From the NCBI GenBank assembly GCA_021155985.1, contig JAJNBA010000005.1, forward strand, positions 61,855 through 125,854: 64,000 nt of DNA, read 5' to 3'. The notes under the pieces were generated by a model that was not told where the DNA came from, did no database searches, and worked only from the letters and a program-made list of their open reading frames with translations. Shown here piece after piece: positions 41,148-63,838 of this stretch. Each line of letters starts with the position of its first letter. Position 1 is the stretch's first letter. Origin of the DNA: Actinomycetes bacterium (GTDB taxonomy: Bacteria > Actinomycetota > UBA4738 > HRBIN12). A program made the position numbers and the translations under genes.

Positions 41148-41773
41148 CAGCGCCAGCCTTCCGCTCGGAGGGCCTGCCACCCGGCCGGCGCGCCGCCGAG
41201 GCTCGTCACGATGCCCGAGAGCGTCTCCCACACGTACCGGCCGAACTCTGTGGCCACGAACACCTCGAGGAGGGGGAACGGGAGTTCGCGGCGGACCAGC
41301 AGCGCCCGGACCTCGGCGATCGGTGCGCCGGCCGCCGCGCCCGGCGGAAGGGTCGAGGGATCCCACGAAGTGGCACGCTGGACCACCTCCGGCAACGCCG
41401 GCCCGGCCAGCGCCACGCCGGCGAACAGGTGGGTCACGTCGGTCACCATCGCCCCGGCCCCGGCGACGGGTTCGATCGCCCGGATCAGCCTCCCTTCCGC
41501 GTCTGGCGCTCCGAGCAGCACCGCCCACTCCGCCGAGATCCGCGCGAGGACGGTGTCGGCCGGCGAGGGCAGCGCCTCCGGGATGCGGCCCCGGATGTCC
41601 ACCTTGGCGCGTGCCGTGATGTCCGCGATCGCCACGCGATCGCGGATCGCCGCGCGCTCCTCCGCGTGGTTCCCGTACGAGGCGGGGATCTCCCATCCCG
41701 CCTCCTCCACGAACACCGCCCCGCGGCGCGACGACAGCCGCGCCGCGGGTGAGCGCCGGATGGCCGTGCTCAC
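41147..41773 (-). CDS. soxG: Sarcosine oxidase gamma subunit family
   Basis: 208 aa from GTG 41773 (overlaps the soxA stop as GTGA). SoxG-like sequence ...VSTAIRRSPAARL...FGRYVWETL.... Confidence 0.7.
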   Translation of the reverse strand: MSTAIRRSPAARLSSRRGAVFVEEAGWEIPASYGNHAEERAAIRDRVAIADITARAKVDIRGRIPEALPSPADTVLARISAEWAVLLGAPDAEGRLIRAIEPVAGAGAMVTDVTHLFAGVALAGPALPEVVQRATSWDPSTLPPGAAAGAPIAEVRALLVRRELPFPLLEVFVATEFGRYVWETLSGIVTSLGGAPAGWQALRAEGWR

Positions 41774-44580
41774 GACCGGAGCCTCTCGCCGCGCGGGTCG
41801 TAGAACGGATCGATCCGGACCGTTCCGATCGTGTGGCTCCCGCCGAACTGGATCTCGAACGTGCTGCCGTCCGCGGCCCACTCCGCGGGCACCCACGCCA
41901 GCCCGACCACGCCACCGACGGCCTCGCTCCGCCTCGCCGAGGTGACCCGGCCGACCCACGCTCCCTCGCGCACCACGGACGCGCCTTCGGGCGGCAGCCA
42001 GCGCTCCGGCGCCGTGAACCCGACGAGCCGCTCGAGCGGGCCCCGCTCCTTCAAGTCGCGGAGCGACCGCAGACCGAGGAAGTCCTCCTTGTCGTCCTTC
42101 ACCATCCAGCCGAGCCCCGCCTCGTAGGGATCGGATTCGGCGTCCGTGTCCTGTCCCACGAGGATGTGCTGCTTCTCCAGGCGGAGGATCCGCTGGGCCT
42201 CCAGACCGAAGGCGACGATCCCGTGGGAGCGACCGGCCCCCATCACGGCGTCCCACAGGTGCTCGCCGTAGGCGGACGGGAAGTGGATCTCGTAGCCCGT
42301 CTCCCCCACGAAGCCGATCCGCAGCACCAGCGAAGGCACGTCCGCCACCGCCATCCTGGTCGCGGTCATGTACGGCATCGCCGACCCGGAGACGTCCGCG
42401 TCCGTGAGCGAGGTCATCACGTCGCGGGCTCGGGGCCCGGCCAGGTTGACGGCCCCGTAGGCCCCCGTCACGTTCAGGATGAGCGCGTCGAGGCCCCAGT
42501 CCGCGTTCCACCAGGTGATCCATCGTTCCAGCGCGGCCGTGTTCCCCGTCGTCACCGTGACGAAGAACTCATCGTCGGCCAGGCGAACGACGGCTCCGTC
42601 GTCGAGGATGACTCCCTCGTCGTTGAGCATCACGCCGTACCGGACCCGTCCCACGGCGAGGTCCGAGAACCGGTTCGGGTAGAGCCGTTCGAGGAGCTCG
42701 ACCGACTCGGGGCCTTTGATCCGGAACGTGCCGAGGGTGCTCACGTCGATCAGGCCGACTCGGTTTCGGACGGCGGCGACCTCCGCTTCGGGGGTCGTGT
42801 AGTGGTGAGGACGTCGCCAGTCCCCGGCCCACATGAACTCCGCGCCCGCGGCGACGTGCCGGTCGTGCATCGTCGTCTCCTTGCGCGGGGTGAGCCGGGC
42901 GCCGGCCAGCGTGCCCATCTCCACCGGTACCCACGGCGGCCGCGACGTGGTGGGCGACGTCTCGGCGAAGGACCGGCCCGTGATTGCGCCGCAGAGTCGT
43001 TGCGACGAGGCCATGCACGCCTTCCCCTGACAGGGGCCCATCGTGATCGTCGTGTAGCGCTTGAGGAGCTCCATCGAGTCGAACCCCTCGGCCGCGGCCG
43101 TCGTGAGCTCCTTCGCGGTCACGTCCATGCAGACGCAGGCGAACTGTTTCCCGGACGCCGCCGATGCCTCCGGCGGTAGGACGATCGGGTCTCCGGATCG
43201 AGCGGCCTCGCTCCGGAGTGCCGCGATCGACGCCGCGTCCACCGGGTGTCCCGATCCCGCCGCTGCCTCGAGACCCGCGAGCCTTCCTTGCGCCACGGAG
43301 GCCTCCGGAGAGCGGGCCCCCGCCACCGCCCCCACGGCCCACATGCGATCGGGCATCTCGTCCGGGAGGAAGGCCTGCAACGTCTCATCGAAGACCAAGC
43401 GCGCTCCGGCCTGCGCGAGGAGGTTCGTGGACGGCGTCTGCACGCAGGCGTTCACGACGAGATCGCAGGAGACCTTCTGCCCCGACGTCGCGCCGACGGT
43501 GCCGACGGACACGGCGCTCACCCGCCGCCGCCCGTGCGCGGACAGGATCGTGGCTCCGGCGAACACCGGGAACCCCTCCGGCCAGCCACCGTCGGAGCGG
43601 AGATCGACGACCGTCACCTCCGCTCCGGCGTCCTTCAGGGCCCAGGCGGTCGAGTAGCCGACGTTGTCGCCGGTGAGGACCACCGCCCGCCGGCCGGGGA
43701 GCACGCCGTAGCGGTGGAGCAGCAGATGCACGGCGGACGAGAGCATCACGCCGGGAAGGTCGTTGCCGGGGAACACCGCGGATCCCTCGACCGCCCCCGT
43801 GGCGAAGATCACGTGTTGGGCGCGGATCCGATACAGGGCGTCCGGCCCCGACGCCCCGATCAGCCCGCCACCGAAGACCCCGAACGCCGCCGTCTCCGCC
43901 AGGAACCGTGCTCTTGACCCGAGGGCTTCCCGCGCGAGCGCCGATCGGAGGGTGCTGCTCGCTTCCCCCAGGAGGTGGCCGCCGGCCTCGCGGCCCTGGT
44001 CGAGCAGGACGACCGATGCCCCCGCCTTCGCGGCCTCGGCCGTGGCCGCGAGGCCGGCCGCCCCGGCACCGATCACGAGGACGTCGGGGTGCAGGTTGAT
44101 CCGCCGGCGCCGCCGGTGATCGGGCTCCTGGGGCACCCTGCCCAGCCCGGCCTTCGAACGGATGTAGGGCTCCACGAGGGGCCATGCCCAGTGAGGGTGC
44201 TGGAAGATCTTGTAGTAGAAGCCCGGCGGCATCATGAACGAGAACGTGTTCAGCCATCCGTGGATGTCCCGGTCGGCGGAGGGCCATGCGTTCTGGCGTT
44301 CGACCCGCATGCCTTCCCGCGCGGGCTCGGTACAGGCGCGCACGTTGGGGATCCCGTCGATCTGCATCAGGCAGTTCGGGCACGAACCCGTCATGCACGA
44401 CAGCCCGCGGGGCCGGTGGTACTTGAACGACCGACCCGTGATCGTGACGCCCGCCGCCGCCAGCGCCGATCCCACGGTGTCCCCTTCGAACGCGGCGATC
44501 GTCCTGCGCTCGAGCCGGAACCTGATCCGCCGGTCGCGCCGGATCGCTTCGCCCTGACGCGCCGGGAGACGTTCGCTCAC
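41770..44580 (-). CDS. soxA: Sarcosine oxidase alpha subunit family
   Basis: 936 aa from GTG 44580 (GTGA overlap with the soxD stop). GDTVGSALAAAGV...SFKYHRPRG, NAD/FAD dinucleotide fold VLVIGAGAAGLAA, C-terminal folate-binding GcvT-like domain. Confidence 0.85.
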   Translation of the reverse strand: MSERLPARQGEAIRRDRRIRFRLERRTIAAFEGDTVGSALAAAGVTITGRSFKYHRPRGLSCMTGSCPNCLMQIDGIPNVRACTEPAREGMRVERQNAWPSADRDIHGWLNTFSFMMPPGFYYKIFQHPHWAWPLVEPYIRSKAGLGRVPQEPDHRRRRRINLHPDVLVIGAGAAGLAATAEAAKAGASVVLLDQGREAGGHLLGEASSTLRSALAREALGSRARFLAETAAFGVFGGGLIGASGPDALYRIRAQHVIFATGAVEGSAVFPGNDLPGVMLSSAVHLLLHRYGVLPGRRAVVLTGDNVGYSTAWALKDAGAEVTVVDLRSDGGWPEGFPVFAGATILSAHGRRRVSAVSVGTVGATSGQKVSCDLVVNACVQTPSTNLLAQAGARLVFDETLQAFLPDEMPDRMWAVGAVAGARSPEASVAQGRLAGLEAAAGSGHPVDAASIAALRSEAARSGDPIVLPPEASAASGKQFACVCMDVTAKELTTAAAEGFDSMELLKRYTTITMGPCQGKACMASSQRLCGAITGRSFAETSPTTSRPPWVPVEMGTLAGARLTPRKETTMHDRHVAAGAEFMWAGDWRRPHHYTTPEAEVAAVRNRVGLIDVSTLGTFRIKGPESVELLERLYPNRFSDLAVGRVRYGVMLNDEGVILDDGAVVRLADDEFFVTVTTGNTAALERWITWWNADWGLDALILNVTGAYGAVNLAGPRARDVMTSLTDADVSGSAMPYMTATRMAVADVPSLVLRIGFVGETGYEIHFPSAYGEHLWDAVMGAGRSHGIVAFGLEAQRILRLEKQHILVGQDTDAESDPYEAGLGWMVKDDKEDFLGLRSLRDLKERGPLERLVGFTAPERWLPPEGASVVREGAWVGRVTSARRSEAVGGVVGLAWVPAEWAADGSTFEIQFGGSHTIGTVRIDPFYDPRGERLRS

Positions 44581-44867
44581 GCGGGCGCGGCCTCCTGCTC
44601 CTCGTCCCGCGGGCGGTCCTGCGGCCGGTACGTCCGCCGGATCTCGTTCGTCGTCGTGTGCCGCTCCGCCAGGAACCACGCCCGACAGCCACTCTGGTGC
44701 ACCCACCACTCGGTCTGCCAACCGTTCACGTTCCGGCGGAAGTACAGGGCGGCGGCCAGTTCCCGGTCGGTCGCCGACGGGCTCGCGCGGCGGGTGGTCT
44801 CGCCGCCGAAGGAGAACTCGAGGGCCTCGCGCGGCCCGCAGTTCGGACACGTGATCAGGAAGGTCAC
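44577..44867 (-). CDS. soxD: Sarcosine oxidase delta subunit family
   Basis: 96 aa (track ORF 44577..44867), GTG start. MTFLITCPNCGPREALEFSFGGE...WQTEWWVHQSGCRAWF matches the SoxD zinc-binding fold. Confidence 0.8.
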   Translation of the reverse strand: MTFLITCPNCGPREALEFSFGGETTRRASPSATDRELAAALYFRRNVNGWQTEWWVHQSGCRAWFLAERHTTTNEIRRTYRPQDRPRDEEQEAAPA

Positions 44868-45222
44868 CCCGCTCCTCCGATCCCGGCCTCGTCCGAGCGC
44901 CGAGGACGCGCGTGAGACTATCGCGTCGCCACCTGGGCATGTACAACAGCCACCAGCCTGCCATCGCGATCAGCGCCAGCGGGAACAGAGGCCGGTCGGT
45001 GAGCGTCGCAAGCAGCACGACACCGAGCCCGATCGCGCTCCCCAGCACCATCGCCTGGATCCGGAATCCGCGCATGTCGCGCATCACGCCTTCATATTCC
45101 TCGGCGGGGATCTGACTCGTGTCCCATCGACGTCCACACGAAGGGCACGTCCAGGTTTCGCCGTACGGGATCCGCTCTACGGCCGTGCAGTCGCACGTCA
45201 CGGTGATCGGTGGACCCTTCAC
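44868..45222 (-). CDS. Possible zinc-ribbon / two-TM small protein whose frame has no stop before running into soxD (frameshift or artefact)
   Basis: First ~118 codons of track ORF 41770..45222: MKGPPITVTCDCTAVERIPYGETWTCPSCGRRWD... then two hydrophobic helices. High GC3 up to exactly the soxD start, after which the frame turns Arg/Pro-rich. Confidence 0.3.
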
Positions 45223-45371
45223 GTCGCGGATGGTACACGCCCCTTCTCACATGCCGTTCGGCGCAACCCGCTCAGATTGAACGCCTCGGTCACGTCGTGC
45301 TATACCGCCGCCAGCGGTTCCGGCGGCGCTCGGGGCCGGGAGGCCGAGCTTCCGGAAAGGGAGGGGGTCAA

Positions 45372-46895
45372 GTGGCTGAGGTCACGGCGCAGGCGACGAT
45401 CGAGGAACGCCAGCTCCTGAAGTCGCTCAACTGGTGGGACGGGTTCGTGATCGCCCTGTGCAATCCGGGGTTCCTGATCGCCTCCCTGGGCTTCACGCTG
45501 GCCACCGTGGGGGCGTTGGGCTCCGTGGTGCTGTGGGGTATCTCCGCGGTGGTGGGACTGCTGCAGAACTGGATCTACTCCGAGACCGCCGCGATGTTCC
45601 CCGACAAACCGGGCGGGATCGCGCTGTACGCACACGAGGGCTGGCGGAGGTACTTCAATCTCATCGGTCCGATCTCGGCATTCGGGTACTGGATCGGCTG
45701 GTCCGTCGTGCTGTCCATCTTCGGCAACCTGATCGGATCGCTCGTGGTGGCCGAGTGGCTCCCGAACTCGGTCGACACCGTGTTCTTCACCTCACCCTTC
45801 GACGTCGCGATCGGTCCCGCGAACCTGATCGGGATCGGGATCGTCGTCGCCGTCTGGCTCTTCAACATCTTCGGGGTCAAGCCCTCCCTCGCCGTCGGCT
45901 ACGTGACCGGCGTGCTCCTGATGATCCCGCTCGCGATCTTCATCGTGGTCCCCTACTTCACCGGGGACTGGCTGAGCTCGAACGTCACGTTCGAGGATGT
46001 CGCGTCGAACGGCGAGTTCAGCCTGTTCGGGATCTCGATGATGTGGTTGTTCATCATGTGCTGGTCCGCGTACGGGATCGAGGTGTCGGCGAGCTTCGCC
46101 CCGGAGTTCCACGACACGAAGCGTGACACGGCCCTGGCGCTCAGGTCGGCCGCCGCGTTCTCGCTGGCCGTGTACATCCTGCTCCCGTTGGGCCTCGGCG
46201 GCGTGGTAGGCACGGCGGGTGACTCGGGCGCGTACTACGTCGAGGCGTTCAAGTCGATCGTGGGGAACACGCTGGGCGGCCTCGCGATCGTGTCGCTGCT
46301 CGCGAGCCTGATCCTCTCGATGAACTCCGCGACGGCCGACGGCGGACGTGCCCTCTACGGGATCGCTCGCGACGACATGACGATCAAGTGGCTGTACCAC
46401 CTGAACAAGTACCACGTGCCCGCTCGCGGGATGACCGTGGATATGGTGGTGAACGTCGGGTTGATCCTGCTCCTGGGGGCGAGCAACCTCGCCATCCTGT
46501 ACATGTCGAACATCGGCTACGTGCTGGCGCACGTGTTCGCGCTCTCCGGGTTCCTGCTGCTACGGCGAGACCGCCCCGACTGGCCGAGGCCGATCAAGGT
46601 GAACCCGGTCTGGGTCGGGCTGGCGTGGCTCCTCGCCGCGTTCAATCTCATCCTGGTGCTCTTCGGCGTGACGCAGAGCGACCTGGCTGCGTTCGTCGGG
46701 TTCTACGAGTTCGCGGGCGCGCCCTTGTACATCGGATTGGGCGTCCTGATCCTGTCGGTCCTGCTGTTCTTCTACCGGCGGGTGGTCGAGGATCGGAAGC
46801 CCATCACGTTCCGGGATCTGGACGTTCCCACCATGCCCAACGAGGACCAGATGCGGATGCTCCGTGAGGAGGTTATGCCCGATCGACCCTCGTAA
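45372..46895 (+). CDS. APC-superfamily amino acid/amine permease
   Basis: About 507 aa from GTG 45372, which is in frame with track ORF 45210..46895, with a GGGAGGGGG Shine-Dalgarno. Twelve TM helices and APC family features. Confidence 0.8.
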   Translation: MAEVTAQATIEERQLLKSLNWWDGFVIALCNPGFLIASLGFTLATVGALGSVVLWGISAVVGLLQNWIYSETAAMFPDKPGGIALYAHEGWRRYFNLIGPISAFGYWIGWSVVLSIFGNLIGSLVVAEWLPNSVDTVFFTSPFDVAIGPANLIGIGIVVAVWLFNIFGVKPSLAVGYVTGVLLMIPLAIFIVVPYFTGDWLSSNVTFEDVASNGEFSLFGISMMWLFIMCWSAYGIEVSASFAPEFHDTKRDTALALRSAAAFSLAVYILLPLGLGGVVGTAGDSGAYYVEAFKSIVGNTLGGLAIVSLLASLILSMNSATADGGRALYGIARDDMTIKWLYHLNKYHVPARGMTVDMVVNVGLILLLGASNLAILYMSNIGYVLAHVFALSGFLLLRRDRPDWPRPIKVNPVWVGLAWLLAAFNLILVLFGVTQSDLAAFVGFYEFAGAPLYIGLGVLILSVLLFFYRRVVEDRKPITFRDLDVPTMPNEDQMRMLREEVMPDRPS

Positions 46896-46917
46896 CGATC
46901 CGTGATCCACCGGAGGA

Positions 46918-46947
46918 GGGGGCGCTCAGCCGCCCCCTTCTTCGTCC
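46918..46947 (+). terminator. Putative intrinsic terminator after the permease gene
   Basis: GGGGGCG-CUCAGC-CGCCCCC perfect 7-bp GC stem followed by UUCUUCGU. Confidence 0.45.
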
Positions 46948-47014
46948 CCGGAGCCCGGCGTTGCCCGCTCCGCGAGCCGCGCTAGCATGAGGCGGTTCCC
47001 GTCAGGAGGTCGAG

Positions 47015-48418
47015 ATGACAGACAAGATGTGGGGTGGCGAGCCGTTCTGGGGCCTCGGATACGACTGGGATCCCGATTGGGTCTACACGGACAAGCAGAA
47101 GGAGCTGCGCGCCACCCTGATCGAGCTCTGCGAGAAGGAGCTCCGCGCCAACGCCAAGCGCTTCGACGACGAGCTGATGTTCCCCCGTCGCAACCTGGAG
47201 CTTCTCGGCGAGCACGGCTTCCTCGCGCTGACGGTGCCGGAGGGATACGGAGGCCTGGGCGAGAACCACGTCGCCTACTCGATGGTCTGCGAGACGATCG
47301 CGCGGTACGGCTGCGCGTCGACCGCGATGTGCTACGTGATGCACATGGGCGCGGTGAACGCGATCATGCTGCGCGCCACCCCCGAGCTGATCGACAAGTA
47401 CATCCGACCACTCAACTCCGGCAAGATCGGCACGCTCTCCTACTCCGACCCCGAGACGGGCTCGCACTTCTGGTACCCGATCTCCTCCGGCGCCGAGCGC
47501 TCGAACGGCGGCTTCAAGGTTCGGAAGAAGGCATCGTGGACCACGTCGGGGGGCTTCGCCGACTTCTACGTCGTGCAGACCACCAGCCCGGATTTCTCCG
47601 GCTACGACGACCTGTCGGTCTTCGTCGTCGACGGCGAGCACATCCAGGCGCAGCCGTCGCTGTGGGATGCGCTCGGGCTCCGGGGCAACCAGTCGGGGCC
47701 GATCGAGATCGACAACATCGAGATCCCGGCGGAGCAGCTCGTCGGCCCGACCGGCGACGGCGCGAACTCGAACGACGAGTCCGTGGACCCCTGGTTCCTG
47801 GTGGGCTCCGCGTCGGTGTGGAACGGCCTGGCCCTCGGAGCGATCGACATCGCGAAACGCCACACCACGCGCAAGAAGCACGTCGATGTCGGACTGCGGG
47901 TGGCGGACTACCCGACCATCCAGGACTACGTCGGCGAGGCGGTGATGGACACGAACGCCTCGCGGCTGTTCACGCTGTCCGTCGCCCAAGCGATGGACGG
48001 CGCCACGGAGAACAACACGGTGAACCCCGGCCCGGGTGAGCTGGCCCGTGGGAACTTCCTCCACTGGGCGTGGCAGATCAAGTTCGAGGCGGCGAAGAAC
48101 ACCGCGCACGTCGTCGACAAGATGCTCCACGCCTGCGGGGGCTCCGGCTACAAGCGCGACATGGAGCTCGAGCGCTACCTCCGGGACGCGAAGGCCGGCT
48201 GGGTGATGGGCCCGACGAACGAGGTGCTCCGCCAGTTCGTCGGCAAGGCCGTGCTGCTGGGTTTCGACTCCCTCGACTACTGGAACCAGTCCTACAATCG
48301 ACGGGCCGTGGAGAACGAGGTCAAGAAACTCGACGCCGCCGGCAAGCGGGAGCTCGCCGAGCAGCTGTTCAAGGAGGCCGACGAGCAGGCGTCGAAGGAA
48401 CCGGCGGCCAAGGGCTGA
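47015..48418 (+). CDS. Acyl-CoA dehydrogenase family protein
   Basis: 467 aa. ACAD three-domain pattern (N-terminal helical, middle beta, C-terminal helical; ...YKRDMELERYLRDAK). GGAGG Shine-Dalgarno. Confidence 0.8.
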   Translation: MTDKMWGGEPFWGLGYDWDPDWVYTDKQKELRATLIELCEKELRANAKRFDDELMFPRRNLELLGEHGFLALTVPEGYGGLGENHVAYSMVCETIARYGCASTAMCYVMHMGAVNAIMLRATPELIDKYIRPLNSGKIGTLSYSDPETGSHFWYPISSGAERSNGGFKVRKKASWTTSGGFADFYVVQTTSPDFSGYDDLSVFVVDGEHIQAQPSLWDALGLRGNQSGPIEIDNIEIPAEQLVGPTGDGANSNDESVDPWFLVGSASVWNGLALGAIDIAKRHTTRKKHVDVGLRVADYPTIQDYVGEAVMDTNASRLFTLSVAQAMDGATENNTVNPGPGELARGNFLHWAWQIKFEAAKNTAHVVDKMLHACGGSGYKRDMELERYLRDAKAGWVMGPTNEVLRQFVGKAVLLGFDSLDYWNQSYNRRAVENEVKKLDAAGKRELAEQLFKEADEQASKEPAAKG

Positions 48419-48423
48419 GGCCG

Positions 48424-50763
48424 ATGGCGATCTCGTCCGGCCGCCGCAGCCTGACCGTCCCCGGCCTGCTGCCCGAGGACCCGTACCTGGAGCGGTACTG
48501 GGTGCGGCCGGGAGGTGCCACGGTGCTCGCTCTCGAGGGCGACGACCGGCTGACGATCCGAGATCCCGACGGCGGCCAGGCCGCCGAGGTCACGGCGCTC
48601 GCGCCGGACGGATCGGAGGACGCCGCCGCTCTCGGCGCGCGAGCCGACGCCCCCGCGACGGTGCTCCGCTCGCTGATCGGGTCCGGGGCCGACGGCGCGC
48701 GAGACGTGATCGACGCCCTGGCCGGCCACGGACTGGATCCCACGCATGCGACCGCCGTCCGGCTGTTCGGGCAGTGGTCGCCGGCCGGCTCGGTCCACTC
48801 GTTCACGGCCGAGCGGCCCGTAGTCGTGGTGATCGCGGCGCCCGAGGGCGCGTCCGTGCTCGAGGGGGGGGTACCGGCATCGGATCTCGATGTGGAGGTG
48901 CGCCGGACGCGCCCTCGGACCCACGACCAGCTCGAGCTTCCTCCCCCGCTCGCGGAACCCCGCCTGGACTTCCGGGTCGACCGGGCCACGGCGCTGTCCT
49001 ACGAGGTGAAGGCCGGGGAGTACATCCAGATCATCGACCTCCAGGGGAAGCAGTGCTCGGACTTCCTCGCGTTCCATCGACGGAAGCTCGAGGACGGGAT
49101 CGAGCGTGGGTTCGACCCGACGATCACCCGCACGCTGATGGGCAACGCGTTCCCCCAGCCGGGGCTGTACTCGAAGTTCTACGACCTCGACATGGACGTT
49201 CTGGTCGAGGTGATCCGGGACACGGTGGGACGGCACGACTCGTTCCTGCTGGCCTGCACGTCCCGGTACTACGAGAGCCTCGGGTACTTCGGCCACACGA
49301 ACTGCACCGACAACTTCAACGGACAGCTCGAGACGTACGCGATCGCGCCGCGGAAGGGTTGGCAGGCGCTCAACTTCTTCTACAACACGATGTTCGCGAC
49401 CGATCACCTCCTCGTCTTCGACGAGCCGTGGTCCCGGCCGGGCGACTACGTCTTGCTGCGTGCCGCCACGGACCTGGTCTGCGCCTCGAGCGCATGCCCC
49501 GACGACGTGGACCCGGCGAACGGATGGGACCCGACCGAGGTGCACGTGCGTGTCTACTCCCCGGAGCACACGTTCTCAGCCGCGATCGCGCACCGGGTGA
49601 CGCCCGACGCCGAACCGACCCTCACGACCGAGACCGGCTTCCACCCTCGGATCTCGGCACTCACGAGCCGGACCACGGAGTACAACGGCTACTGGCTGCC
49701 GACGAGCTTCGACAACCACGGGGCGACGGACGAGTACTGGGCATGCCGGGAGCGTGCCGCGATCATGGACCTCTCGCCGCTCCGGAAGTTCGAGGTGCTG
49801 GGACCGGACGCCGAGGCGTTGCTGCAGGCCACCGTGACGCGCGACGTCCGACGGCTCTCGGACGGCCACGTCGTCTACACGGCGATGTGCAACGAGGACG
49901 GCGGGATGATCGACGACGCGACGATCTTCCGGATCGCAGACACGAACTTCCGGTTCGTCGGCGGGGGCGAGTACGACGGCGTGTGGCTCAGGGAACAGGC
50001 GTCGCGGCTCGGCCTCAACGCCTTCGTGAAAGAATCCACCGACCACCTCCACAACGTGGCGGTCCAAGGTCCGGCGAGCCGGGCGCTCCTCGAGGAGATC
50101 GTCTGGACGCCCCCCGCGCAGACGCCGTTCGGCGCGCTCGAGTGGTTCCGGTTCTCCGTGGGCCGGGTCGGCGGTCCGACCGGCGTCCCCGCCGTGATCT
50201 CGCGGACCGGGTACACGGGTGAGCTCGGCTACGAGATCTTCTGCCACCCGAAGGACGCGCCGACGGTGTGGGACTCGATCTGGGCCGCCGGAGAGCCGCA
50301 CGGCCTCCTGCCGCTGGGCCTGGACGCGCTCGACATCCTCCGGATCGAGGCCGGGCTGATCTTCGCCGGATACGAGTTCGACGATCAGGTCGATCCGTTC
50401 GAGGCGGGCATCGGTTTCACGGTCACGAAGGCCAAGGACGAGGACTACGTCGGGCGCGAGGCGCTCCGCGAGCGTCGCGACCATCCGCAGCGGACCCTGG
50501 TCGGCCTCGACCTTGCGGGGAACGAGCCGGCCGGGCACGGCGACGGCGTGTACGTCGATCGTCAGCAGGTGGGAGTGGTCACCAGCGGAACCCGCTCGCC
50601 GATCCTGAAGAAGAACATCGCGCTCGCCCGTGTCGCGGTGCAGCACCGTGACCCTGGCGCCGCCCTCGAGGTGGGCAAGCTCGACGGGCACCAGAAGCGG
50701 ATCCCGGCGACGGTCGTACCGTTCCCCTTCTACGACCCCGAGAAGACGCGGCCTCGTTCCTGA
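48424..50763 (+). CDS. Fusion protein: N-terminal DUF1989-like (urea-carboxylase-associated family) region plus C-terminal aminomethyltransferase (GcvT-like, folate-binding) domain
   Basis: Real start ATG 48424 (MAISSGRRSLTV...), GAGG Shine-Dalgarno; the upstream 118 codons of the track ORF overlap the ACAD end and are noise. DUF1989-like blocks AGEYIQIIDLQGKQCSDF, CTSRYYESLGYFGHTNCTDNFN. GcvT blocks from ACRERAAIMDLSPLRKFEVLGPDA to GYTGELGYEIF. Confidence 0.75.
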   Translation: MAISSGRRSLTVPGLLPEDPYLERYWVRPGGATVLALEGDDRLTIRDPDGGQAAEVTALAPDGSEDAAALGARADAPATVLRSLIGSGADGARDVIDALAGHGLDPTHATAVRLFGQWSPAGSVHSFTAERPVVVVIAAPEGASVLEGGVPASDLDVEVRRTRPRTHDQLELPPPLAEPRLDFRVDRATALSYEVKAGEYIQIIDLQGKQCSDFLAFHRRKLEDGIERGFDPTITRTLMGNAFPQPGLYSKFYDLDMDVLVEVIRDTVGRHDSFLLACTSRYYESLGYFGHTNCTDNFNGQLETYAIAPRKGWQALNFFYNTMFATDHLLVFDEPWSRPGDYVLLRAATDLVCASSACPDDVDPANGWDPTEVHVRVYSPEHTFSAAIAHRVTPDAEPTLTTETGFHPRISALTSRTTEYNGYWLPTSFDNHGATDEYWACRERAAIMDLSPLRKFEVLGPDAEALLQATVTRDVRRLSDGHVVYTAMCNEDGGMIDDATIFRIADTNFRFVGGGEYDGVWLREQASRLGLNAFVKESTDHLHNVAVQGPASRALLEEIVWTPPAQTPFGALEWFRFSVGRVGGPTGVPAVISRTGYTGELGYEIFCHPKDAPTVWDSIWAAGEPHGLLPLGLDALDILRIEAGLIFAGYEFDDQVDPFEAGIGFTVTKAKDEDYVGREALRERRDHPQRTLVGLDLAGNEPAGHGDGVYVDRQQVGVVTSGTRSPILKKNIALARVAVQHRDPGAALEVGKLDGHQKRIPATVVPFPFYDPEKTRPRS

Positions 50764-50765
50764 CG

Positions 50766-51644
50766 ATGGGCGGCCTGATCGAGTCCTTCACGCAGGAGCA
50801 GGTCGAGGCGTTCCACCAGGACGGCTTCCTGATCGTCGAGGAAGGGCTGGTCTCCGAGAAGGCTCTCGAACTCCTCGAGGAACGCTACCTCCGCCTCTTC
50901 GACGGCGAGTACGAGACCGGGATCAAGCCGGACGAGGTCAATTGGGTCAAGGGCAGGGATCCCGAGGATCGCACCCGGCAGCTCTGCAACGCCTGGCGCG
51001 CCGACACCGTGATCGCGGCCCAGGTCCTGTCGGCGAGGATCGGCCGCCTCGCGGCCCAGCTGATGGGCTATCCGGGCGTGCGGATCCTCCAGGACAACGT
51101 GCTCTGGAAGCCGCCCGGCACCAAGGCGATCGGCTTCCACCAGGACGGATCCTACGCCGACTACCTGGTACCCCCGGAGATGGTGACGTGCTGGATGTCG
51201 CTGCACGAGACCCAGGCGGACGCCGGGCCGATCGCCTACGTGCGTGGGTCGAACCACTGGCCGTGGACACCGCCGGAGCGGTCGCAGTTCCATGCGCCCG
51301 ATGACTGGCTCGCCGGCGTCCGGGACGCGAAGCCCGCGGACGCGGAGATGGACATCATGCCGGTCGTCGTGAAACCGGGCGGCGGCGCGTTCCACCACAA
51401 CCTCACGTGGCACGGCTCCGAGCCGAACACGAGCGGCACCGTTGCGCGGATGGCCTTGGTCTCCCACATGCTCCCTACCACCGCGCGGTTCCACCACCGC
51501 AACGTCGACCTGATCTACTCGCGCTATCGGCGCCGGGGCGACACCGCGATGGACGAGTCGTTCTTCCCCGTGCTCTGGGACGAGACGGGCCATCGGACGA
51601 CATGGCTCGAGGAGCTCCCCGAGATCGAGGAAGCGATCGAGTAG
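50766..51644 (+). CDS. Phytanoyl-CoA dioxygenase (PhyH) family Fe(II)/2-oxoglutarate oxygenase
   Basis: 292 aa. HxD...H facial triad candidates (GFHQDGSY, WHGSEPN). Starts 3 nt after the previous stop. Confidence 0.8.
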   Translation: MGGLIESFTQEQVEAFHQDGFLIVEEGLVSEKALELLEERYLRLFDGEYETGIKPDEVNWVKGRDPEDRTRQLCNAWRADTVIAAQVLSARIGRLAAQLMGYPGVRILQDNVLWKPPGTKAIGFHQDGSYADYLVPPEMVTCWMSLHETQADAGPIAYVRGSNHWPWTPPERSQFHAPDDWLAGVRDAKPADAEMDIMPVVVKPGGGAFHHNLTWHGSEPNTSGTVARMALVSHMLPTTARFHHRNVDLIYSRYRRRGDTAMDESFFPVLWDETGHRTTWLEELPEIEEAIE

Positions 51645-51650
51645 CGAGGA

Positions 51651-51669
51651 GGGACGAGTCAGTCGTCCC
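51651..51669. terminator. Bidirectional terminator-like hairpin between convergent genes
   Basis: GGGACGA-GUCAG-UCGUCCC, a perfect 7-bp stem lying between the PhyH stop (51644) and the stop of the minus-strand gene (51659..51661). Confidence 0.35.
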
Positions 51670-52639
51670 GGAGCCGTCCGGCGAGCACCTCCAGCATCGC
51701 CCACGCCGCTCGAGGCTCGCGCTCGACCGTGCTCCGCACGAGGTCGCGCGAGATCGCGAGGGCCCGCAACGGCGACACCGCCACGACGTCGGCACTCCGC
51801 GGTCGCCCGTCGATCACCGCGATCTCCCCGAAGAACTCGCCCTCCCCGAAGGTCGACAGCGCGTTCCCCTCCCGTTCCACGCGAGCTTCGCCTTCGATGA
51901 TCACGAAGAGCTCATCTCCCGGTTCGCCCTCCCGCACGACGAACTCCCCCGGCTCGAACGTTCGCTCGACCCCCTCCGCCGTGATCACGGCCAGGATCTC
52001 CGGGGGGAGCGACGAGAACACGGGGGCGCGCTCGAGGAGGTGCCGGTACCGCCCGCCCTGGAACAGCAGAGGCCGTCCTTCCCCGTACCTCGCGTACTCG
52101 ACCTGTCCCACGAACAAGGAGTGATCGCCACCCCAGTTAGACCGCACCACCTTGGCCACCAGATGGGCGAGCGCCCCGCGCACGAGGGGCGTGTCATGGA
52201 CCAGGTCGAATCCGACCTCTTCCGTCCCCTCGGTCGCGCGGCCCGCGAAGCGATCGGAGAGGGACCGCTGCTCATCCGCGAGCACGCTGATCCCGTACCG
52301 GCGACCCTCGTGGAGGAGAGCGTGCATCTTCGCCCGGCGGTCCACCGAGATCACCACGAGCGGCGGCCGGAGCGACACCGACATGAAGGCGTTCGCCGTC
52401 ATGCCGTGCACCTGCTCACCGTCTTGCGTGGTGATCACGGTCACTCCGGTCGCGAACATCCCCAGCGTGCGGCGGAAGGCGGCCGCCGGGTCCTGTCCCG
52501 GCTCGCCCGCGATCTCGAGCTCGTCGGCGTCCGGGGTGTCATCCGGGAACGTCTCCCCGATCCCCACCGGGGCGAACCCACCGTGGACCGGCAGGTCGAA
52601 CTCGACCGGACGCGCCGAGGAGGCGGGGCGCTCGGCCAC
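51659..52639 (-). CDS. Flavin reductase (HpaC/NADH:FMN oxidoreductase-like) fused to a C-terminal cyclic-nucleotide-binding domain
   Basis: GTG 52639 directly follows the upstream stop (alternative ATG 52459). Flavin reductase core AAFRRTLGMFATGVTVITT. cNMP-binding FEPGEFVVREGEPGDELFVIIEGEARV...FGEIAVIDGRPRSADVVAV. Confidence 0.7.
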   Translation of the reverse strand: MAERPASSARPVEFDLPVHGGFAPVGIGETFPDDTPDADELEIAGEPGQDPAAAFRRTLGMFATGVTVITTQDGEQVHGMTANAFMSVSLRPPLVVISVDRRAKMHALLHEGRRYGISVLADEQRSLSDRFAGRATEGTEEVGFDLVHDTPLVRGALAHLVAKVVRSNWGGDHSLFVGQVEYARYGEGRPLLFQGGRYRHLLERAPVFSSLPPEILAVITAEGVERTFEPGEFVVREGEPGDELFVIIEGEARVEREGNALSTFGEGEFFGEIAVIDGRPRSADVVAVSPLRALAISRDLVRSTVEREPRAAWAMLEVLAGRLRDD

Positions 52640-52641
52640 GC

Positions 52642-53988
52642 CTAGCTCCAGGGGTACGGAGAGTGACTGACGGGGTGCAGCTTCCCTTCGGCGAAGCGGG
52701 AGAAACGGAACGGCTCGAGGAGACCCTGCGGCTCGCCGAGGAGCTCCTTCGCGACGAGCTGCCCGATCCCGATCATCTTGTAGCCGTGGTTCGAATCGGC
52801 GACCACGTAGGCGTTGTCCACGAAGCGGTCGAAGACGGGGAAGCTGTCGGGCGTGAACGCGCCGATCCCCCCGGTGGGCGCCTTCCGGTACAGCCCGCGC
52901 TTCCCCTCGAACCGCTTGTGACAGTGCGCGAGCGCCGCCGTCCACATACGTTCGAACTCCGGCGTCACGACGAACTCCGTGCTCAGGTGGCCGTAGGGAT
53001 CGACGGCCACGTCGTCGGCGGGCTGGTCCACGACCCACGGCATCGCGCCGCCCTGGACGCCACCGAAGTTGACGTCGGGCTTGTAGTAGATGCCCCAGAG
53101 CTCCTCGGTCACGATGGAGCCGTCCATGTCGTCGATCAGCGGCGCGTCCGTGTCCACGTGCACGACCGGCGGCATGTTGCCCTCGTTGTCCAGCAGGTAG
53201 CTCGGGTCGACGCCGAGCGTGCCCTCCTGGAGGCACCAGTACGTCCACATCGGCCGCTCGTAGACGTTCCCGTCGCGCCCCTTCACGTCCACCACGCCGG
53301 GCAGGTCGAGCATGCGCCAGAAGTCGCGGACCCAGGGGCCGGCCGCGACCACGACCTGCTCGCAGGCGATCGCGCCTCGGTCCGTCTCGACCGCGGCGAC
53401 CGCTCCCCCGCCGACCCGGAACCCGGTCACCGACACCGGTGCGTGGAGGATGACACCGAGCCCCTCGCTCTTGGCGCGCAGGCCCCGCATCGAGGGCATG
53501 TTCTCCGCGTAGCCACCCTTCTTCTCGTGCAGGACCGCCGTGATCTTCTTCGCCTGCCAGTCCGAGAAGATCGACTCCATGTACGAGCGGCAATCGTCCT
53601 CGCCCTCGATCAGCTCCGACGTGTAGCCGATGGCCTGCTGCTGCTCGTAGATCGTCCGGACGTCGGACCGCATCACCTCTGGCGCGATCTGGAGGTAGCC
53701 GATCGGGTGGTAGTGGAAGGCTTCCGGGTCCGATTCCCAGACCTGCACCGAGTGGGCCATCAGCTCCCGCATCGCCGGCTGGAAGTAGTTGTTACGGATC
53801 ACACCGCACGCGATCCCGGACGGTCCCGCCCCGATCCCGGTCTTGTCGAGGATCACGATGTCGCCCCCGTCACCCTCGCCGCGGCGTTCGAGCTCCTTCG
53901 CGAGATGCCAGGCCGTGGAGAGGCCGTGGATGCCGGCACCGATCACGACGAACCGCGCGCTCCCGGGGAGCTCCACCGTGCGGACCAC
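52642..53988 (-). CDS. FAD-dependent oxidoreductase (DAO family; PuuB / sarcosine-oxidase-beta-like)
   Basis: 448 aa. FVVIGAGIHGLSTAWHLA dinucleotide-binding motif and DAO-family C-terminus. Confidence 0.8.
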   Translation of the reverse strand: MVRTVELPGSARFVVIGAGIHGLSTAWHLAKELERRGEGDGGDIVILDKTGIGAGPSGIACGVIRNNYFQPAMRELMAHSVQVWESDPEAFHYHPIGYLQIAPEVMRSDVRTIYEQQQAIGYTSELIEGEDDCRSYMESIFSDWQAKKITAVLHEKKGGYAENMPSMRGLRAKSEGLGVILHAPVSVTGFRVGGGAVAAVETDRGAIACEQVVVAAGPWVRDFWRMLDLPGVVDVKGRDGNVYERPMWTYWCLQEGTLGVDPSYLLDNEGNMPPVVHVDTDAPLIDDMDGSIVTEELWGIYYKPDVNFGGVQGGAMPWVVDQPADDVAVDPYGHLSTEFVVTPEFERMWTAALAHCHKRFEGKRGLYRKAPTGGIGAFTPDSFPVFDRFVDNAYVVADSNHGYKMIGIGQLVAKELLGEPQGLLEPFRFSRFAEGKLHPVSHSPYPWS

Positions 53989-54012: not shown

Positions 54013-55125
54013 CTAGGGTCTCGCGGTACACACGCAGAACAACGTTCCCTGCGGGTCGGACATCGTCGTCCAGCGGCTGCCGCCGTCCGCCGTCTCGTCG
54101 ATCGTCCACTCCACCGTCGCGCCGAGTCCTCGAAGCCGAGTCACCTCCGCGTCGACGTCGTCGACCCGGAGATCGAGGTGGACGGGGTTCTTCCCGGGCC
54201 CGATCGCGTCCACCTGCTGGATCACCACGGCGGGTCGCGCGTCCCCCGCCGGAGGGACGAGCACGACGAAGGGGCCGCGCGCCGAGCGTCGCTCGTAGCC
54301 CAGCGCCGCCTGCCAGAACGCCACCGCGCCGGCGGAGTCCGTCGCGTCGATCGTGACCTCGATCGACGCCGTCAGGGGACCCCGACCTCCTCCCTCCCAG
54401 ATCCCCAGCGTCCGGTCGTCGTCCTGCCACTCCTCATGGAGCTCCCACTGGACACCGAGGACGAACGAGGAGGATCCGGGCATCTCCACGGCTTCGATCG
54501 TTCCATGAGGCGCCCAGGCAACGGCCTCCAAGCCCGTCCCCAGATCCTTGACCGCCTGATGGTGGTAGCTGTCGACCTCCGCATGCTCGCCCAGGTGCGA
54601 CGCGAGCAGGGAGCCGGGCTTCACATCGACCGGATGCGTGGGATGTGGCGGCCGGGGCGCTCCTTCGAGCGTCGCCGTCACCAGCGCTCGCCATTCGCCC
54701 CACTTCGCCCCCGGATGGTCCGCCCCGCCCCGTGGGAACTCCTCCAGGTCCCCGTAGAGCGTTCCGCCCAGGGCGACGTTCAGGACCTGGCATCCGCGGC
54801 ACACGCCGAGGACGGGCACCTCTTCCTCTACCGCGAGCAGCGCGTACGACAGGTCGATCTCGTCGAGGAACGGCTGCCCGGGGAGGTGCTTCGGATGTGG
54901 CTCTTCTCGGCCGTACCGCCACGCCTCGATGTCGCGCCCGCCGGCCAGGACCAACCCGTCGATCCGCTCGATCAGCTCGACCCGATCCTCCTCGCGTTCG
55001 TAGAACGGCAGGAGGACGGGGAGGGCGCCCGCTGCGAGGAGCGGGCGCCCGTACCCGTAGCCGTAGTAGTCGCCGTAGTCGGCGAAGCCTTCCGAGATCG
55101 CGACCAGCGGGCGCCGATCCGTCAT
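54013..55125 (-). CDS. Gamma-glutamyl-amine hydrolase-like class-I glutamine amidotransferase (peptidase C26, PuuD-like) with C-terminal VOC/glyoxalase domain
   Basis: 370 aa. C26 triad context GVCRGCQ, SYHHQAV, GVQWELHEE. C-terminal ~120 aa glyoxalase-like domain. Confidence 0.75.
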   Translation of the reverse strand: MTDRRPLVAISEGFADYGDYYGYGYGRPLLAAGALPVLLPFYEREEDRVELIERIDGLVLAGGRDIEAWRYGREEPHPKHLPGQPFLDEIDLSYALLAVEEEVPVLGVCRGCQVLNVALGGTLYGDLEEFPRGGADHPGAKWGEWRALVTATLEGAPRPPHPTHPVDVKPGSLLASHLGEHAEVDSYHHQAVKDLGTGLEAVAWAPHGTIEAVEMPGSSSFVLGVQWELHEEWQDDDRTLGIWEGGGRGPLTASIEVTIDATDSAGAVAFWQAALGYERRSARGPFVVLVPPAGDARPAVVIQQVDAIGPGKNPVHLDLRVDDVDAEVTRLRGLGATVEWTIDETADGGSRWTTMSDPQGTLFCVCTARP

Positions 55126-55611: not shown

Positions 55612-57015
55612 TCAGCCGGGGAACTGCCCGGTATCGGCGAGGTACTTCTGCATCATCGTCTTGATGTCCTCGAGCGTCTCCTTGTCCGTGACGCCGGGGA
55701 TGTAGTCGGTACCGGCGAGCGGCACCTTCGCCATCGCGGCCGCCTCCACGGTGAGCGCGCAGAGGTCTTCCGGCTCCAGCGAGTGGACGTCGGTCTTGCC
55801 GCAGGCGCGGGCGAGCATCTGGAGCTCCATCGTCATCGCCGTCAGGAAGTTGTAGACGCGTTCGGCTGCCGAGTCGACCTCGAGCCGCTTGCGCAGCTCC
55901 GGATCCTGCGTCGTGATCCCGACCGGGCACCGGCCGGTGTGGCAGTGGTAGCACTGACCGGCCGGCACGCCGACGGTGCCCTCGTAATCGGTGACCCCGG
56001 GGATCTCCTTGTTGCAGTTCAGGGCCATCAGCGCCGAGTGTCCGATCGCGACCGCCGTCGCGCCGAGGGCCAGGCACTTCGCGACGTCCGCGCCGTTGCG
56101 GATCCCGCCGGCCACGACCAGGTCCACCTCGTCCACCAGGCCGACATCCTCGAGGGCGCGACGAGCCTCGGGGATCGCGGCCATCAGCGGGATGCCGGTC
56201 TCCTCGGCGGCGATGTGGGGGCCGGCCCCCGTCGAGCCCTCGGCCCCGTCGAGGTAGATGATGTCCGGGCCGCACTTCGCGGCCATCCGCACGTCGTCGT
56301 AGACGCGGGCCGCGCCCAGCTTCAGCTGGATCGGGATCCGGTAGTCGGTCGCCTCGCGAACCTCCTGGACCTTCAGCGAGAGGTCGTCGGGCCCGAGCCA
56401 GTCCGGATGCCGGGCGGGCGAGCGCTGATCGATCCCGGCGGGGAGCGATCGCATCTCGGCCACCTGCTCGGTGACCTTCTGGCCCATCAGGTGGCCGCCG
56501 AGCCCGACCTTGCACCCCTGACCGATGAAGAACTCGCACGCGTCGGCCAGCATCAAGTGGTGCGGGTTGAACCCGTACCGCGACTGGATGTTCTGGTAGT
56601 ACCACTTCGTCGAGAGGTCCCGCTCGGGCGGGATCATCCCGCCTTCCCCCGAGCAGGTGGCCGTGCCGGCCATCGAGGCGCCCTTCGCGAGCGCCATCTT
56701 GGCCTCGAGCGACAGCGCGCCGAACGACATCCCCGTGATGTAGATCGGGATGTCGAGCTCGATCGGGTGCGTCGCGAAGCGGGCGCCGAGGACCGTCCTC
56801 GTGTCGCACTTCTCGCGGTAGCCCTCGATCACGAAGCGGGTCAGGGTGCCGGGCAGGAACATCAGCTGGTCCCAGCCGGGCATCGGCTTGAACATCGAGA
56901 ACCCGCGCATCCGGTAGCGACCGAGCTCCGACTTCACGTGGATGTCGTTGATGACCTCCTCCGTGAAGATGGGGCTCCGCCCCAGGACCTCCTTGCGGGA
57001 GGACACCTCCGCCAT
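55612..57015 (-). CDS. mgsC: Glutamate synthase-family FMN-binding domain protein (GltB domain-2-like; N-methylglutamate synthase subunit C-like)
   Basis: 467 aa. TIM-barrel FMN domain motifs (PIYITGMSFGALS, GEGG, LDGAEGSTGAGP, CHTGRCPVGI). Confidence 0.85.
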   Translation of the reverse strand: MAEVSSRKEVLGRSPIFTEEVINDIHVKSELGRYRMRGFSMFKPMPGWDQLMFLPGTLTRFVIEGYREKCDTRTVLGARFATHPIELDIPIYITGMSFGALSLEAKMALAKGASMAGTATCSGEGGMIPPERDLSTKWYYQNIQSRYGFNPHHLMLADACEFFIGQGCKVGLGGHLMGQKVTEQVAEMRSLPAGIDQRSPARHPDWLGPDDLSLKVQEVREATDYRIPIQLKLGAARVYDDVRMAAKCGPDIIYLDGAEGSTGAGPHIAAEETGIPLMAAIPEARRALEDVGLVDEVDLVVAGGIRNGADVAKCLALGATAVAIGHSALMALNCNKEIPGVTDYEGTVGVPAGQCYHCHTGRCPVGITTQDPELRKRLEVDSAAERVYNFLTAMTMELQMLARACGKTDVHSLEPEDLCALTVEAAAMAKVPLAGTDYIPGVTDKETLEDIKTMMQKYLADTGQFPG

Positions 57016-58752: not shown

Positions 58753-58817
58753 GGAGGGAAGAGCTCCTTTCTCGGTTCTTTGGTCGCCTCGTCTTCGGTC
58801 CTCGGGTCCTCTCGCTC

Positions 58818-63801: not shown

Positions 63802-63838
63802 CGAGGTCTCCTCTCTCTCCCTTTCCACGAGATCGGGC

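Follow-up and report, generated by a model that had tools for sequence, protein, structure and literature searches.

We analysed a stretch of 64,000 nucleotides (nt), here called the window, from an uncultured member of the Actinomycetota (GenBank assembly GCA_021155985.1, contig JAJNBA010000005.1, positions 61,855 to 125,854), and in particular three adjacent genes that encode a protein with the acyl-CoA dehydrogenase (ACAD) fold, a fusion of DUF1989 and GcvT domains, and a member of the PhyH family. Judged by its sequence, the fusion protein is with high confidence trimethylamine N-oxide (TMAO) demethylase (Tdm), an enzyme that is already characterised down to cryo-EM structures; the fusion itself therefore adds nothing new. 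Its ACAD-fold neighbour is probably a flavoprotein oxygenase that uses O2 and is fed by a separate flavin reductase, and it may well have trimethylamine (TMA) as its substrate, N-oxygenating it to TMAO for Tdm. What is new here is the partnership of the ACAD-fold protein and the reductase with Tdm. We found no paper in the searchable literature that connects Tdm with an ACAD-fold gene or with a two-component TMA oxygenase.

Gene calls were based on GC bias at third codon positions, the window having a G+C content of about 70%. The three open reading frames (ORFs) are co-directional and have strong coding bias (third-position GC of 0.94, 0.84 and 0.88), and Pfam searches agree with the coordinates and the domain architecture that an earlier note on this DNA had given for the trio (Table 1). 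The middle domain of the ACAD-fold protein scores 31.1 bits, just short of the Pfam cut-off of 33.3. Read from the sequence, the spacers are 5 nt (GGCCG) between the ACAD-fold gene and tdm and 2 nt (CG) between tdm and the PhyH gene, a trivial difference from the 6 and 3 nt reported earlier. A GGAGG ribosome-binding site lies upstream of the ACAD-fold start codon, and a promoter and terminator scan of positions 46700-52800 gave no signal exceeding shuffled expectation. A further gene, absent from the first reading of the window, encodes the flavin reductase at 51659-52639. It is convergent to the PhyH gene and lies inside a longer spurious ORF, and its minus-strand coding signal is clear in the frame plot.

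Against the NCBIfam equivalog NF053776, the fusion protein scores 1161.9 bits (cut-off 1100) across profile positions 11-762 of 763. Its residues 14-779 align with residues 24-787 of the cryo-EM structure of Paracoccus TDM (PDB 9Q59) with an E-value of 5.8e-269, and all parts of the Tdm architecture are found: the N-terminal domain, the DUF1989 core, and the GcvT folate-binding domain with its C-terminal barrel. In the Paracoccus enzyme, the DUF1989 core bears a Cys3-Zn site (C285, C301 and C365), D220, F327 and D367 hold TMAO, which is converted to dimethylamine (DMA) and formaldehyde, and the formaldehyde tunnels to tetrahydrofolate (THF) in the GcvT domain, where the pocket includes R480, F582, F672 and K782 (PMC13619132). 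In the 9Q59 alignment, the zinc ligands correspond to C278, C294 and C358 of the window protein, the two aspartates that contact substrate and product to D213 and D360, and the THF pocket residues to R473, F575, F665 and K774. The sole change among the compared residues is a conservative one, Y320 in place of F327. His291 of the window protein corresponds to H276 of the Methylocella enzyme (PMC12560246).

Because the fusion protein matches Tdm with its zinc-cysteine, substrate and THF residues conserved, its predicted substrate is TMAO. The earlier note had left the substrate to be found among carnitine, gamma-butyrobetaine, dimethylsulfoniopropionate and betaines, and had described DUF1989 as lacking established biochemistry. 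The equivalog and 9Q59 matches replace the former suggestion, and the latter no longer holds since the DUF1989 core inside Tdm has an established role in holding the Zn-Cys3 catalytic site. Its assignment of the DUF1989 domain is borne out by domain search (Table 1), as is the role given to the GcvT domain in passing a methyl-derived one-carbon (C1) unit to THF. The window protein shares its three-part architecture, zinc site, equivalents of D220 and D367, and THF pocket with the characterised enzymes of Methylocella silvestris (Msil_3603) and Paracoccus (PDB 9Q59, 9Q5A and 9Q5L), and the pathway context of gmaS, mgsABC and a TmoP-like permease is also common to them. It differs in its tyrosine at the F327 position, in its uncultured Actinomycetota host, and in having an ACAD-fold neighbour instead of tmm.

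The ACAD-fold protein lacks both of the known catalytic glutamates of acyl-CoA dehydrogenases. In alignments to solved ACADs, the position of E376 in the medium-chain enzyme (MCAD) is occupied by G399, within the sequence VMGPT rather than the IYEGT of MCAD and the short-chain enzyme (SCAD), and the position of E254 in isovaleryl-CoA dehydrogenase (IVD) is occupied by W260. All 59 of the 59 family members compared, from bacteria and animals, have Gly or Ala at the first position and Trp, Phe or Tyr at the second, while a wider clade (27-39% identity) has Gly or Ala at the first and no Glu at the second. The Arg that is conserved beside the base in ACADs is Phe or Leu in the ACAD-fold protein. 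At the place where ACADs bind the thioester, W260, F261, W396 and M398 stand in for the Glu and Arg residues. Since both glutamates are absent family-wide, we infer that this protein is probably not an acyl-CoA dehydrogenase; of the earlier annotation as such an enzyme, the fold stands and the dehydrogenase identity is unlikely. An AF2 model (pLDDT 89.2) retrieved only genuine ACADs with Foldseek, at 20-27% identity and with TM scores of 0.85-0.91 to SCAD and IVD. The fold is that of an ACAD, yet fold alone cannot separate a dehydrogenase from an ACAD-fold oxygenase.

The protein carries extensions of about 20 residues at the N-terminus and about 50 at the C-terminus. It has no FMO-like or Pyr_redox Pfam match and does not have the fold of Tmm, which is a class B flavin-containing monooxygenase (FMO). 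Its nearest NCBIfam family is Rv1679 (FadE16; 2e-65), for which the searched literature describes no function. The family is narrow, with 211 cluster representatives of 1.84 billion scoring below 1e-30, and its members are named "acyl-CoA dehydrogenase" or "AidB-like" in databases. A tblastn search of a plasmid collection with the ACAD-fold protein gave a best match of 35% identity and no annotated close relative.

To place these genes in context we used about 170 related loci. They comprise 80 actinobacterial genome loci (Tdm identity 64-96%), onto which the genes of the window were mapped by tblastn; 80 metagenome loci, of which 45 span 7 kb or more, from a scan that started from the ACAD-fold protein of a contig carrying DmmA-DmmB-DmmC-ACAD-Tdm; and 11 further bacterial contexts of ACAD-fold homologues with 62-64% identity to the window protein. 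The nearest genomes are metagenome-assembled genomes (MAGs) of uncultured Actinomycetota, and more distant loci are mostly labelled Gaiellaceae, Solirubrobacterales or Thermoleophilaceae. Thermoleophilia order or family labels are carried by the majority of the related loci.

In 69 of the 71 actinobacterial loci with enough upstream DNA, tdm is immediately preceded by a co-directional ACAD-fold gene, whose product is better conserved than Tdm across the actinobacterial set (median identity 84% and 67%, respectively). Among the 53 loci that extend at least 8 kb on both sides of tdm, the genes found nearby are those for the ACAD-fold protein (52 loci), a flavin reductase (48), the permease (45), mgsC (37), a DAO-family enzyme (35) and the PhyH protein (25). 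The eight closest relatives (Tdm identity at least 89%; L001, L002, L003, L006, L008, L011, L016 and L054) have the gene order ACAD-Tdm-PhyH, as do many Gaiellaceae-labelled loci, so the coupling described in the earlier note is conserved. Most loci labelled Solirubrobacterales or Thermoleophilaceae have the order ACAD-Tdm-FlavRed. This last arrangement is frequently an operon, a same-strand flavin reductase being the next gene after tdm in 31 loci, and of 48 metagenome loci with flanks, 22 have a flavin reductase directly beside the ACAD-fold gene. We infer that the flavin reductase in the window is the partner of the ACAD-fold protein. The window reductase has an additional cNMP-binding domain, which is apparently absent from the reductases that directly follow tdm, where the tblastn match spans the flavin-reductase part only.

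The metagenome loci place Tdm within 3.5 kb of the ACAD-fold gene in 16 of the 22 with enough flank, and three arrangements recur among the 45 longer loci. Type A, seen in 10 loci, reads permease-dmmA-dmmB-dmmC-(194 aa)-ACAD-FlavRed-Tdm. Type B has genes for a fatty-acid desaturase, an aldolase and a HAL-like lyase, followed at some distance by FlavRed-ACAD-TPR-SHMT-like-Tdm, and type C reads DAO-gmaS-mgsABC-137 aa-ACAD-Tdm-FlavRed. A cluster resembling type B occurs in eight loci (L104, L123, L126, L143, L149, L151, L157 and L161), where genes for a TPR protein and an SHMT-like protein and a convergent tdm are downstream and the region upstream of FlavRed-ACAD holds fatty-acid-desaturase-like, class II aldolase and aromatic-amino-acid-lyase-like genes together with several unknown small ORFs; the cluster could encode a pathway that supplies the amine substrate.

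The 11 further contexts extend the association to cyanobacteria and other lineages. The cyanobacterium Leptolyngbya sp. NK1-12 has PhyH and Amt genes, each set apart, ahead of ACAD-Tdm-small protein-GntR-mgsABC, with DAO and Gln-synt genes upstream, and on further cyanobacteria-like contigs the operon consists of ACAD-Tdm-small protein alone. Additional arrangements are PhyH-ACAD-permease-x-Tdm-small protein-GntR; a lineage in which ACAD-Flavin_Reduct is convergent with Tdm, FTHFS, DAO and Gln-synt genes; a single-strand run of DAO-gmaS-mgsABC-Amt-ACAD-Tdm-Flavin_Reduct; and the DmmA-DmmB-DmmC-ACAD-Tdm contig. The cyanobacterial Tdm homologues are only 607-619 residues long (L082 9465-11855, L083 9421-11716, L091 13903-16241 and L092 14239-16559) and lack the N-terminal domain that has been termed ubiquitous (PMC12560246). 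Each is followed by a conserved ORF of 156-172 codons without a Pfam family; the idea that this ORF is the detached N-terminal domain of Tdm was unsupported (hhalign probability about 1%).

In animals, the ACAD-fold domain is naturally joined to a reductase module. Animal proteins of about 770 residues carry the ACAD-fold domain (46-52% identity) fused to FAD_binding_6 and NAD_binding_1 domains, which resemble cytochrome b5 reductase (FNR type), and these proteins are among the nearest full-length outgroups of the bacterial family. Their hosts are marine invertebrates: decapods, amphipods including the hadal Hirondellea gigas, barnacles, an isopod, a stomatopod, the brachiopod Lingula, corals, an annelid and a chiton. 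The decapods include lobster, shrimps, crabs and crayfish. The animals often have several paralogues of the fusion (P0245, P0263, P0271 and P0391-P0454), whose annotations read uncharacterised, "ACAD9-like" or "b5 reductase". Many of these marine invertebrates accumulate TMAO.

Because the dehydrogenase base has been lost, flavin-reductase synteny is conserved and a natural fusion to an FNR-type reductase exists, we favour a reductase-fed oxygenase. In the proposed mechanism, the flavin reductase would pass electrons from NAD(P)H to the ACAD-fold flavoprotein, which in its reduced form would activate O2 and N-oxygenate TMA to TMAO as a non-homologous stand-in for the FMO-type Tmm. Tdm would then split TMAO into DMA and formaldehyde, and the formaldehyde would travel through the internal tunnel and react with THF in the GcvT domain to form 5,10-methylene-THF. 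The choice of TMA follows from two observations: the ACAD-fold gene takes the place of tmm next to tdm, and dmmABC already covers the DMA step in type A clusters, leaving the conversion of TMA to TMAO as the only gap. FMO-like (Tmm-type) families are not among the recurrent neighbours in the actinobacterial or metagenome loci, and no ORF scanned across the window, a few short gaps lying outside the scan, matches Tmm or DmmA/HODM. The resulting pathway would run from TMA through TMAO and DMA to monomethylamine; its first enzyme appears to be a non-homologous replacement, and its third may be another.

The proposal has a precedent in the group D flavin monooxygenases, which have the ACAD fold. 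Oxygenation of a heteroatom, N or S, is their typical reaction: isobutylamine N-hydroxylase, KijD3 and DnmZ act on the nitrogen of amines, and DszC on the sulfur of thioethers. Enzymes of this group that depend on a flavin reductase are an established class (PMC13352529). The ACAD-fold protein shares with these enzymes (DszC, SfnB, HsaA, DnmZ, KijD3 and isobutylamine N-hydroxylase) a fold without the dehydrogenase base and a dedicated flavin reductase nearby, but the similarity is remote (E-values of 1e-9 to 1e-18), and the family is nearer to true ACADs and retains their GGSGY motif. With Tmm it shares the proposed reaction, TMA + O2 + NAD(P)H giving TMAO, and the same place in the gene order with respect to tdm and dmmABC (nomenclature of PMC5520151). 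It differs from Tmm in its unrelated ACAD-type fold, in taking electrons from a separate reductase (fused in animals) where Tmm binds NADPH directly, and in that its function is only proposed.

Several observations weigh against this assignment. The closest structures and sequences to the ACAD-fold protein are genuine acyl-CoA dehydrogenases (E-values of about 1e-33), and ACAD-fold oxygenases are more remote (DnmZ 9e-12, DszC 9e-10 and SfnB 2e-18). GGSGY, a motif in the C-terminal domain of ACADs that contacts FAD, is invariant in the family and suggests a tightly bound FAD, unlike most two-component oxygenases. In the window the reductase lies outside the ACAD operon, on the opposite strand after the DAO gene, and carries the cNMP-binding domain; it could serve another enzyme. 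Some family members have no tdm within 8-10 kb (L081, L088, L089, L096 and L154); three of the 11 further contexts are of this kind, one of them with an OpuAC-type ABC transporter beside the ACAD-fold gene. The TmoP-like permease implies direct import of TMAO, so that a TMA oxygenase would not be strictly required. The finding that tmm is missing from the scanned window and from recurrent neighbours applies to loci and not to whole genomes. Roughly half of the loci lack the PhyH gene, whose role is conjectural, and the function put forward for the ACAD-fold family is a prediction from sequence and gene context.

The same genes admit other roles. One is that the ACAD-fold protein and the flavin reductase act after Tdm as a DMA monooxygenase or dehydrogenase that yields methylamine and formaldehyde and replaces DmmABC. 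Nitrogen gain from TMAO needs a step that consumes DMA; neither the scanned ORFs of the window nor the neighbours in the 80 actinobacterial loci include dmm genes; the permease suggests that TMAO, not TMA, is imported; and degradation of DMA in the absence of dmmDABC is recognised as a gap (PMC5520151). However, the 10 type A loci cluster the ACAD-fold and reductase genes with complete dmmABC and tdm, so the DMA step is covered there, and these clusters led us to disfavour the ACAD-fold protein as a DMA enzyme. Flavin N-oxygenation of a secondary amine gives hydroxylamines or nitrones, which from general flavin chemistry are the products to expect here, and not methylamine. We regard a DMA-oxidising role as unlikely. 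A role without any substrate of its own, in which the flavoprotein and reductase would be redox helpers that keep a labile metal of Tdm reduced or form an activating complex with it, would suit the tight coupling of the genes (a spacer of 5 nt in the window, and 1 nt or an overlap in cyanobacteria) and the stronger conservation of the ACAD-fold protein relative to Tdm. The metal content of Tdm is disputed: the M. silvestris enzyme is proposed to hold Zn together with Fe2+, the Paracoccus enzyme Zn alone. The activities that have been reported are low (PMC12560246; PMC13619132). Against such a helper, proteobacterial Tdm is active alone in vitro, without an ACAD-fold or reductase partner (PMC13619132), some ACAD-fold members have no tdm nearby, and the fused animal homologues exist. 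We consider it improbable that helping Tdm is the sole function of the pair.

The earlier note had suggested a CoA-linked route. In one form of such a route, the ACAD-fold protein would dehydrogenate an acyl-CoA such as gamma-butyrobetainyl-CoA, or eliminate TMA in the manner of BbuA, and the fusion and PhyH proteins would act on the same substrate. The fold, the Pfam matches and the nearest PDB relatives are all those of acyl-CoA dehydrogenases, and BbuA reportedly releases TMA from a CoA ester, an ACAD-like enzyme being described for the anaerobic pathway from gamma-butyrobetaine to TMA (bioRxiv 10.1101/2021.01.25.428109). DmdA with DmdC, and the gamma-butyrobetaine system, likewise offer parallels for a GcvT-fold, THF-dependent demethylase and an ACAD-fold enzyme within one methylated-onium pathway. 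The ACADs of those systems, however, use CoA thioesters made by dedicated ligases or transferases, whereas no CoA ligase, CoA transferase, hydratase or electron-transfer flavoprotein (ETF) gene is among the recurrent neighbours in the related loci, and the GcvT domain of the window belongs to Tdm. The whole family lacks the two catalytic glutamates, its conserved partner is not an ETF but a flavin reductase, and the fusion matches Tdm at equivalog level with its TMAO-binding residues. With the catalytic base missing and CoA-activating neighbours failing to recur, we rejected the CoA-linked pathway, which now seems highly improbable. An oxygenase that supplies TMAO to Tdm is the reading that we carry forward.

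The third gene of the operon may concern the next step. The iron triad of the PhyH protein, H125-x-D127...H216, is well kept in 14 sequences, with H125 and H216 invariant and D127 nearly so. The PhyH domain and the HxD...H triad are shared with Fe(II)/2-oxoglutarate oxygenases of the PhyH family (MysH, SnoK, EvdO2 and PHYHD1 in the PDB, and ectoine hydroxylase), but the similarity to characterised members is weak, with E-values of about 1e-8 or worse (best PDB match 2.5e-8), and scores against the NCBIfam subfamilies are all far below cut-off, at about 20 bits compared with 200-336, so that the protein belongs to none of ectoine hydroxylase, the halogenases or PhyH proper. The gene is within 10 kb of tdm in 25 of the 53 loci, never without the reductase, and is the next gene after tdm in 26 loci. 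Homologues with 43-45% identity lie beside the ACAD-fold and tdm genes in the cyanobacterial loci L082, L091 and L092; the PhyH gene thus goes with the ACAD-Tdm module in two phyla.

Because PhyH-bearing clusters, both actinobacterial and cyanobacterial, lack dmmABC, and type A clusters, which have dmmABC, contain no PhyH homologue detectable by tblastn, we speculate that the PhyH protein could be an oxidative DMA demethylase that fills the DmmABC step, hydroxylating a methyl group of DMA to give methylamine and formaldehyde; we hold this to be doubtful. The step is the one required after Tdm, and DmmDABC, which performs it, is clustered with the ACAD-fold family and tdm in the type A loci; in the window and the 80 actinobacterial loci, the PhyH and/or DAO proteins are the only candidates in its place. 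The DAO-family enzyme may instead belong to the methylamine branch because its gene travels with gmaS and mgsABC. The PhyH gene is accordingly a candidate for the missing DMA step in organisms without dmmABC (gap noted in PMC5520151).

Current accounts of aerobic TMA catabolism include, to our knowledge, only one TMA oxygenase, the FMO-type Tmm, and tmm, tdm and dmm are the genes counted when methylated-amine cycling is surveyed in soil and in the sea. If the ACAD-fold protein is a TMA oxygenase, then the capacity to oxidise TMA has been under-counted in soil Actinomycetota (mostly Thermoleophilia-labelled MAGs), Cyanobacteria and others, and the "acyl-CoA dehydrogenase" and "AidB-like" annotations of the family need correcting. 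The fused animal homologues would likewise be candidates, open to testing, for the enzyme with which marine invertebrates make TMAO. We suggest tentatively that the family could represent a second route to TMAO, unrelated to FMOs, in bacteria (Actinomycetota, Cyanobacteria and others) and in animals, where the fusion could make TMAO as an osmolyte or piezolyte.

The operon lies in an island that spans about 33.7 to 63.8 kb of the window (Table 1), and because TMAO is the substrate of Tdm this is a methylated-amine catabolic and C1 island. It would cover the downstream steps, namely methylamine oxidation through N-methylglutamate and C1 oxidation, and it also holds formate dehydrogenase subunits and FdhD. 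The mgs genes are syntenic with tdm in many loci, and the DAO gene recurs with gmaS and mgsABC, a 64% identical homologue lying beside Gln-synt in L086 and L090.

Table 1. Features of the window discussed in the text (positions are those of the window).
Feature	Position	Strand	Evidence
AIR-synthase-related gene, possibly selD	14585-15664		
Formate dehydrogenase alpha	35694-37628	-	In-frame TGA at 37380-37382
SoxB-like and SoxA-like, sarcosine-oxidase type	39933-45222 (39933-41915, 41770-45222)	-	soxB 3.9e-135; soxA 6.1e-227; Pfam GCV_T, Fer2_4, SO_alpha_A3
APC-family permease, distant TmoP relative	45210-46895	+	AA_permease_2 9.6e-37; TmaoPremMsil 210 bits, cut-off 690
ACAD-fold protein, 467 aa	47015-48418	+	Pfam Acyl-CoA_dh_N 4.8e-22; Acyl-CoA_dh_1 1e-11
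Tdm fusion, 779 aa	48424-50763	+	Pfam DUF1989 7.4e-45 (185-352); GCV_T 2.9e-68 (407-665); GCV_T_C 1.2e-20 (690-771)
PhyH protein, 292 aa	50766-51644	+	Pfam PhyH 9.9e-23; 82 bits, cut-off 22
NAD(P)H:flavin reductase (HpaC-like) with cNMP-binding domain	51659-52639	-	Flavin_Reduct PF01613 1.2e-36; cNMP_binding 1.1e-20
DAO-family FAD-dependent amine oxidoreductase (SoxB-like N-terminal part)	52642-53988	-	Pfam DAO 2.1e-32
Peptidase_C26 (gamma-glutamyl hydrolase type) and Glyoxalase_6 fusion	54013-55125	-	Pfam 6.9e-50; 1.3e-24
Conserved protein of about 150 aa	55151-55552	-	No Pfam family
mgsC, mgsB, mgsA-like (N-methylglutamate synthase)	55612-57015, 57044-57835, 57823-58854	-	Pfam Glu_synthase 5.2e-91; NCBIfam GXGXG-type and class-II amidotransferase
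Glutamine-synthetase type III ligase, gmaS-like	58818-61298	-	NCBIfam gln_synth_III 5.7e-79 (residues 414-784)
Glyoxalase_6, stand-alone	62684-63118	-	
Methenyl-THF cyclohydrolase, FchA-like	63169-63828	-	NF045657 3.9e-47; 160 bits, cut-off 275

Some of the ORFs in this high-GC DNA extend beyond the recognisable domains. The permease start is probably over-extended, its Pfam domain starting at residue 73. In the SoxB-like, SoxA-like and gmaS-like ORFs, 220-410 N-terminal residues have no Pfam match and overlap neighbouring genes; for the gmaS-like ORF, only the C-terminal 410 or so residues match and the N-terminal 412 do not. These three ORFs are probably over-extended or else hide small subunit genes such as soxD or soxG. 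Judging from their domains, the SoxB-like and SoxA-like genes would encode subunits of a sarcosine-oxidase-type heterotetramer of the kind found in N-methylglutamate dehydrogenase.

The Peptidase_C26-glyoxalase fusion, the second, stand-alone glyoxalase, the DAO gene and the gmaS-like gene together resemble a Puu-type gamma-glutamylation route for an amine. Between the fusion gene and mgsC lies the conserved gene for a protein of about 150 residues, whose product is 80% identical to that of the ORF after mgsC in 25 related loci. An in-frame TGA interrupts the formate dehydrogenase alpha gene within SCNRT*HAPSV, and for this reason only the C-terminal 557 residues appear in the ORF list. In FdhF-type enzymes, selenocysteine lies at this place, and the AIR-synthase-related gene elsewhere in the window is possibly a SelD candidate.

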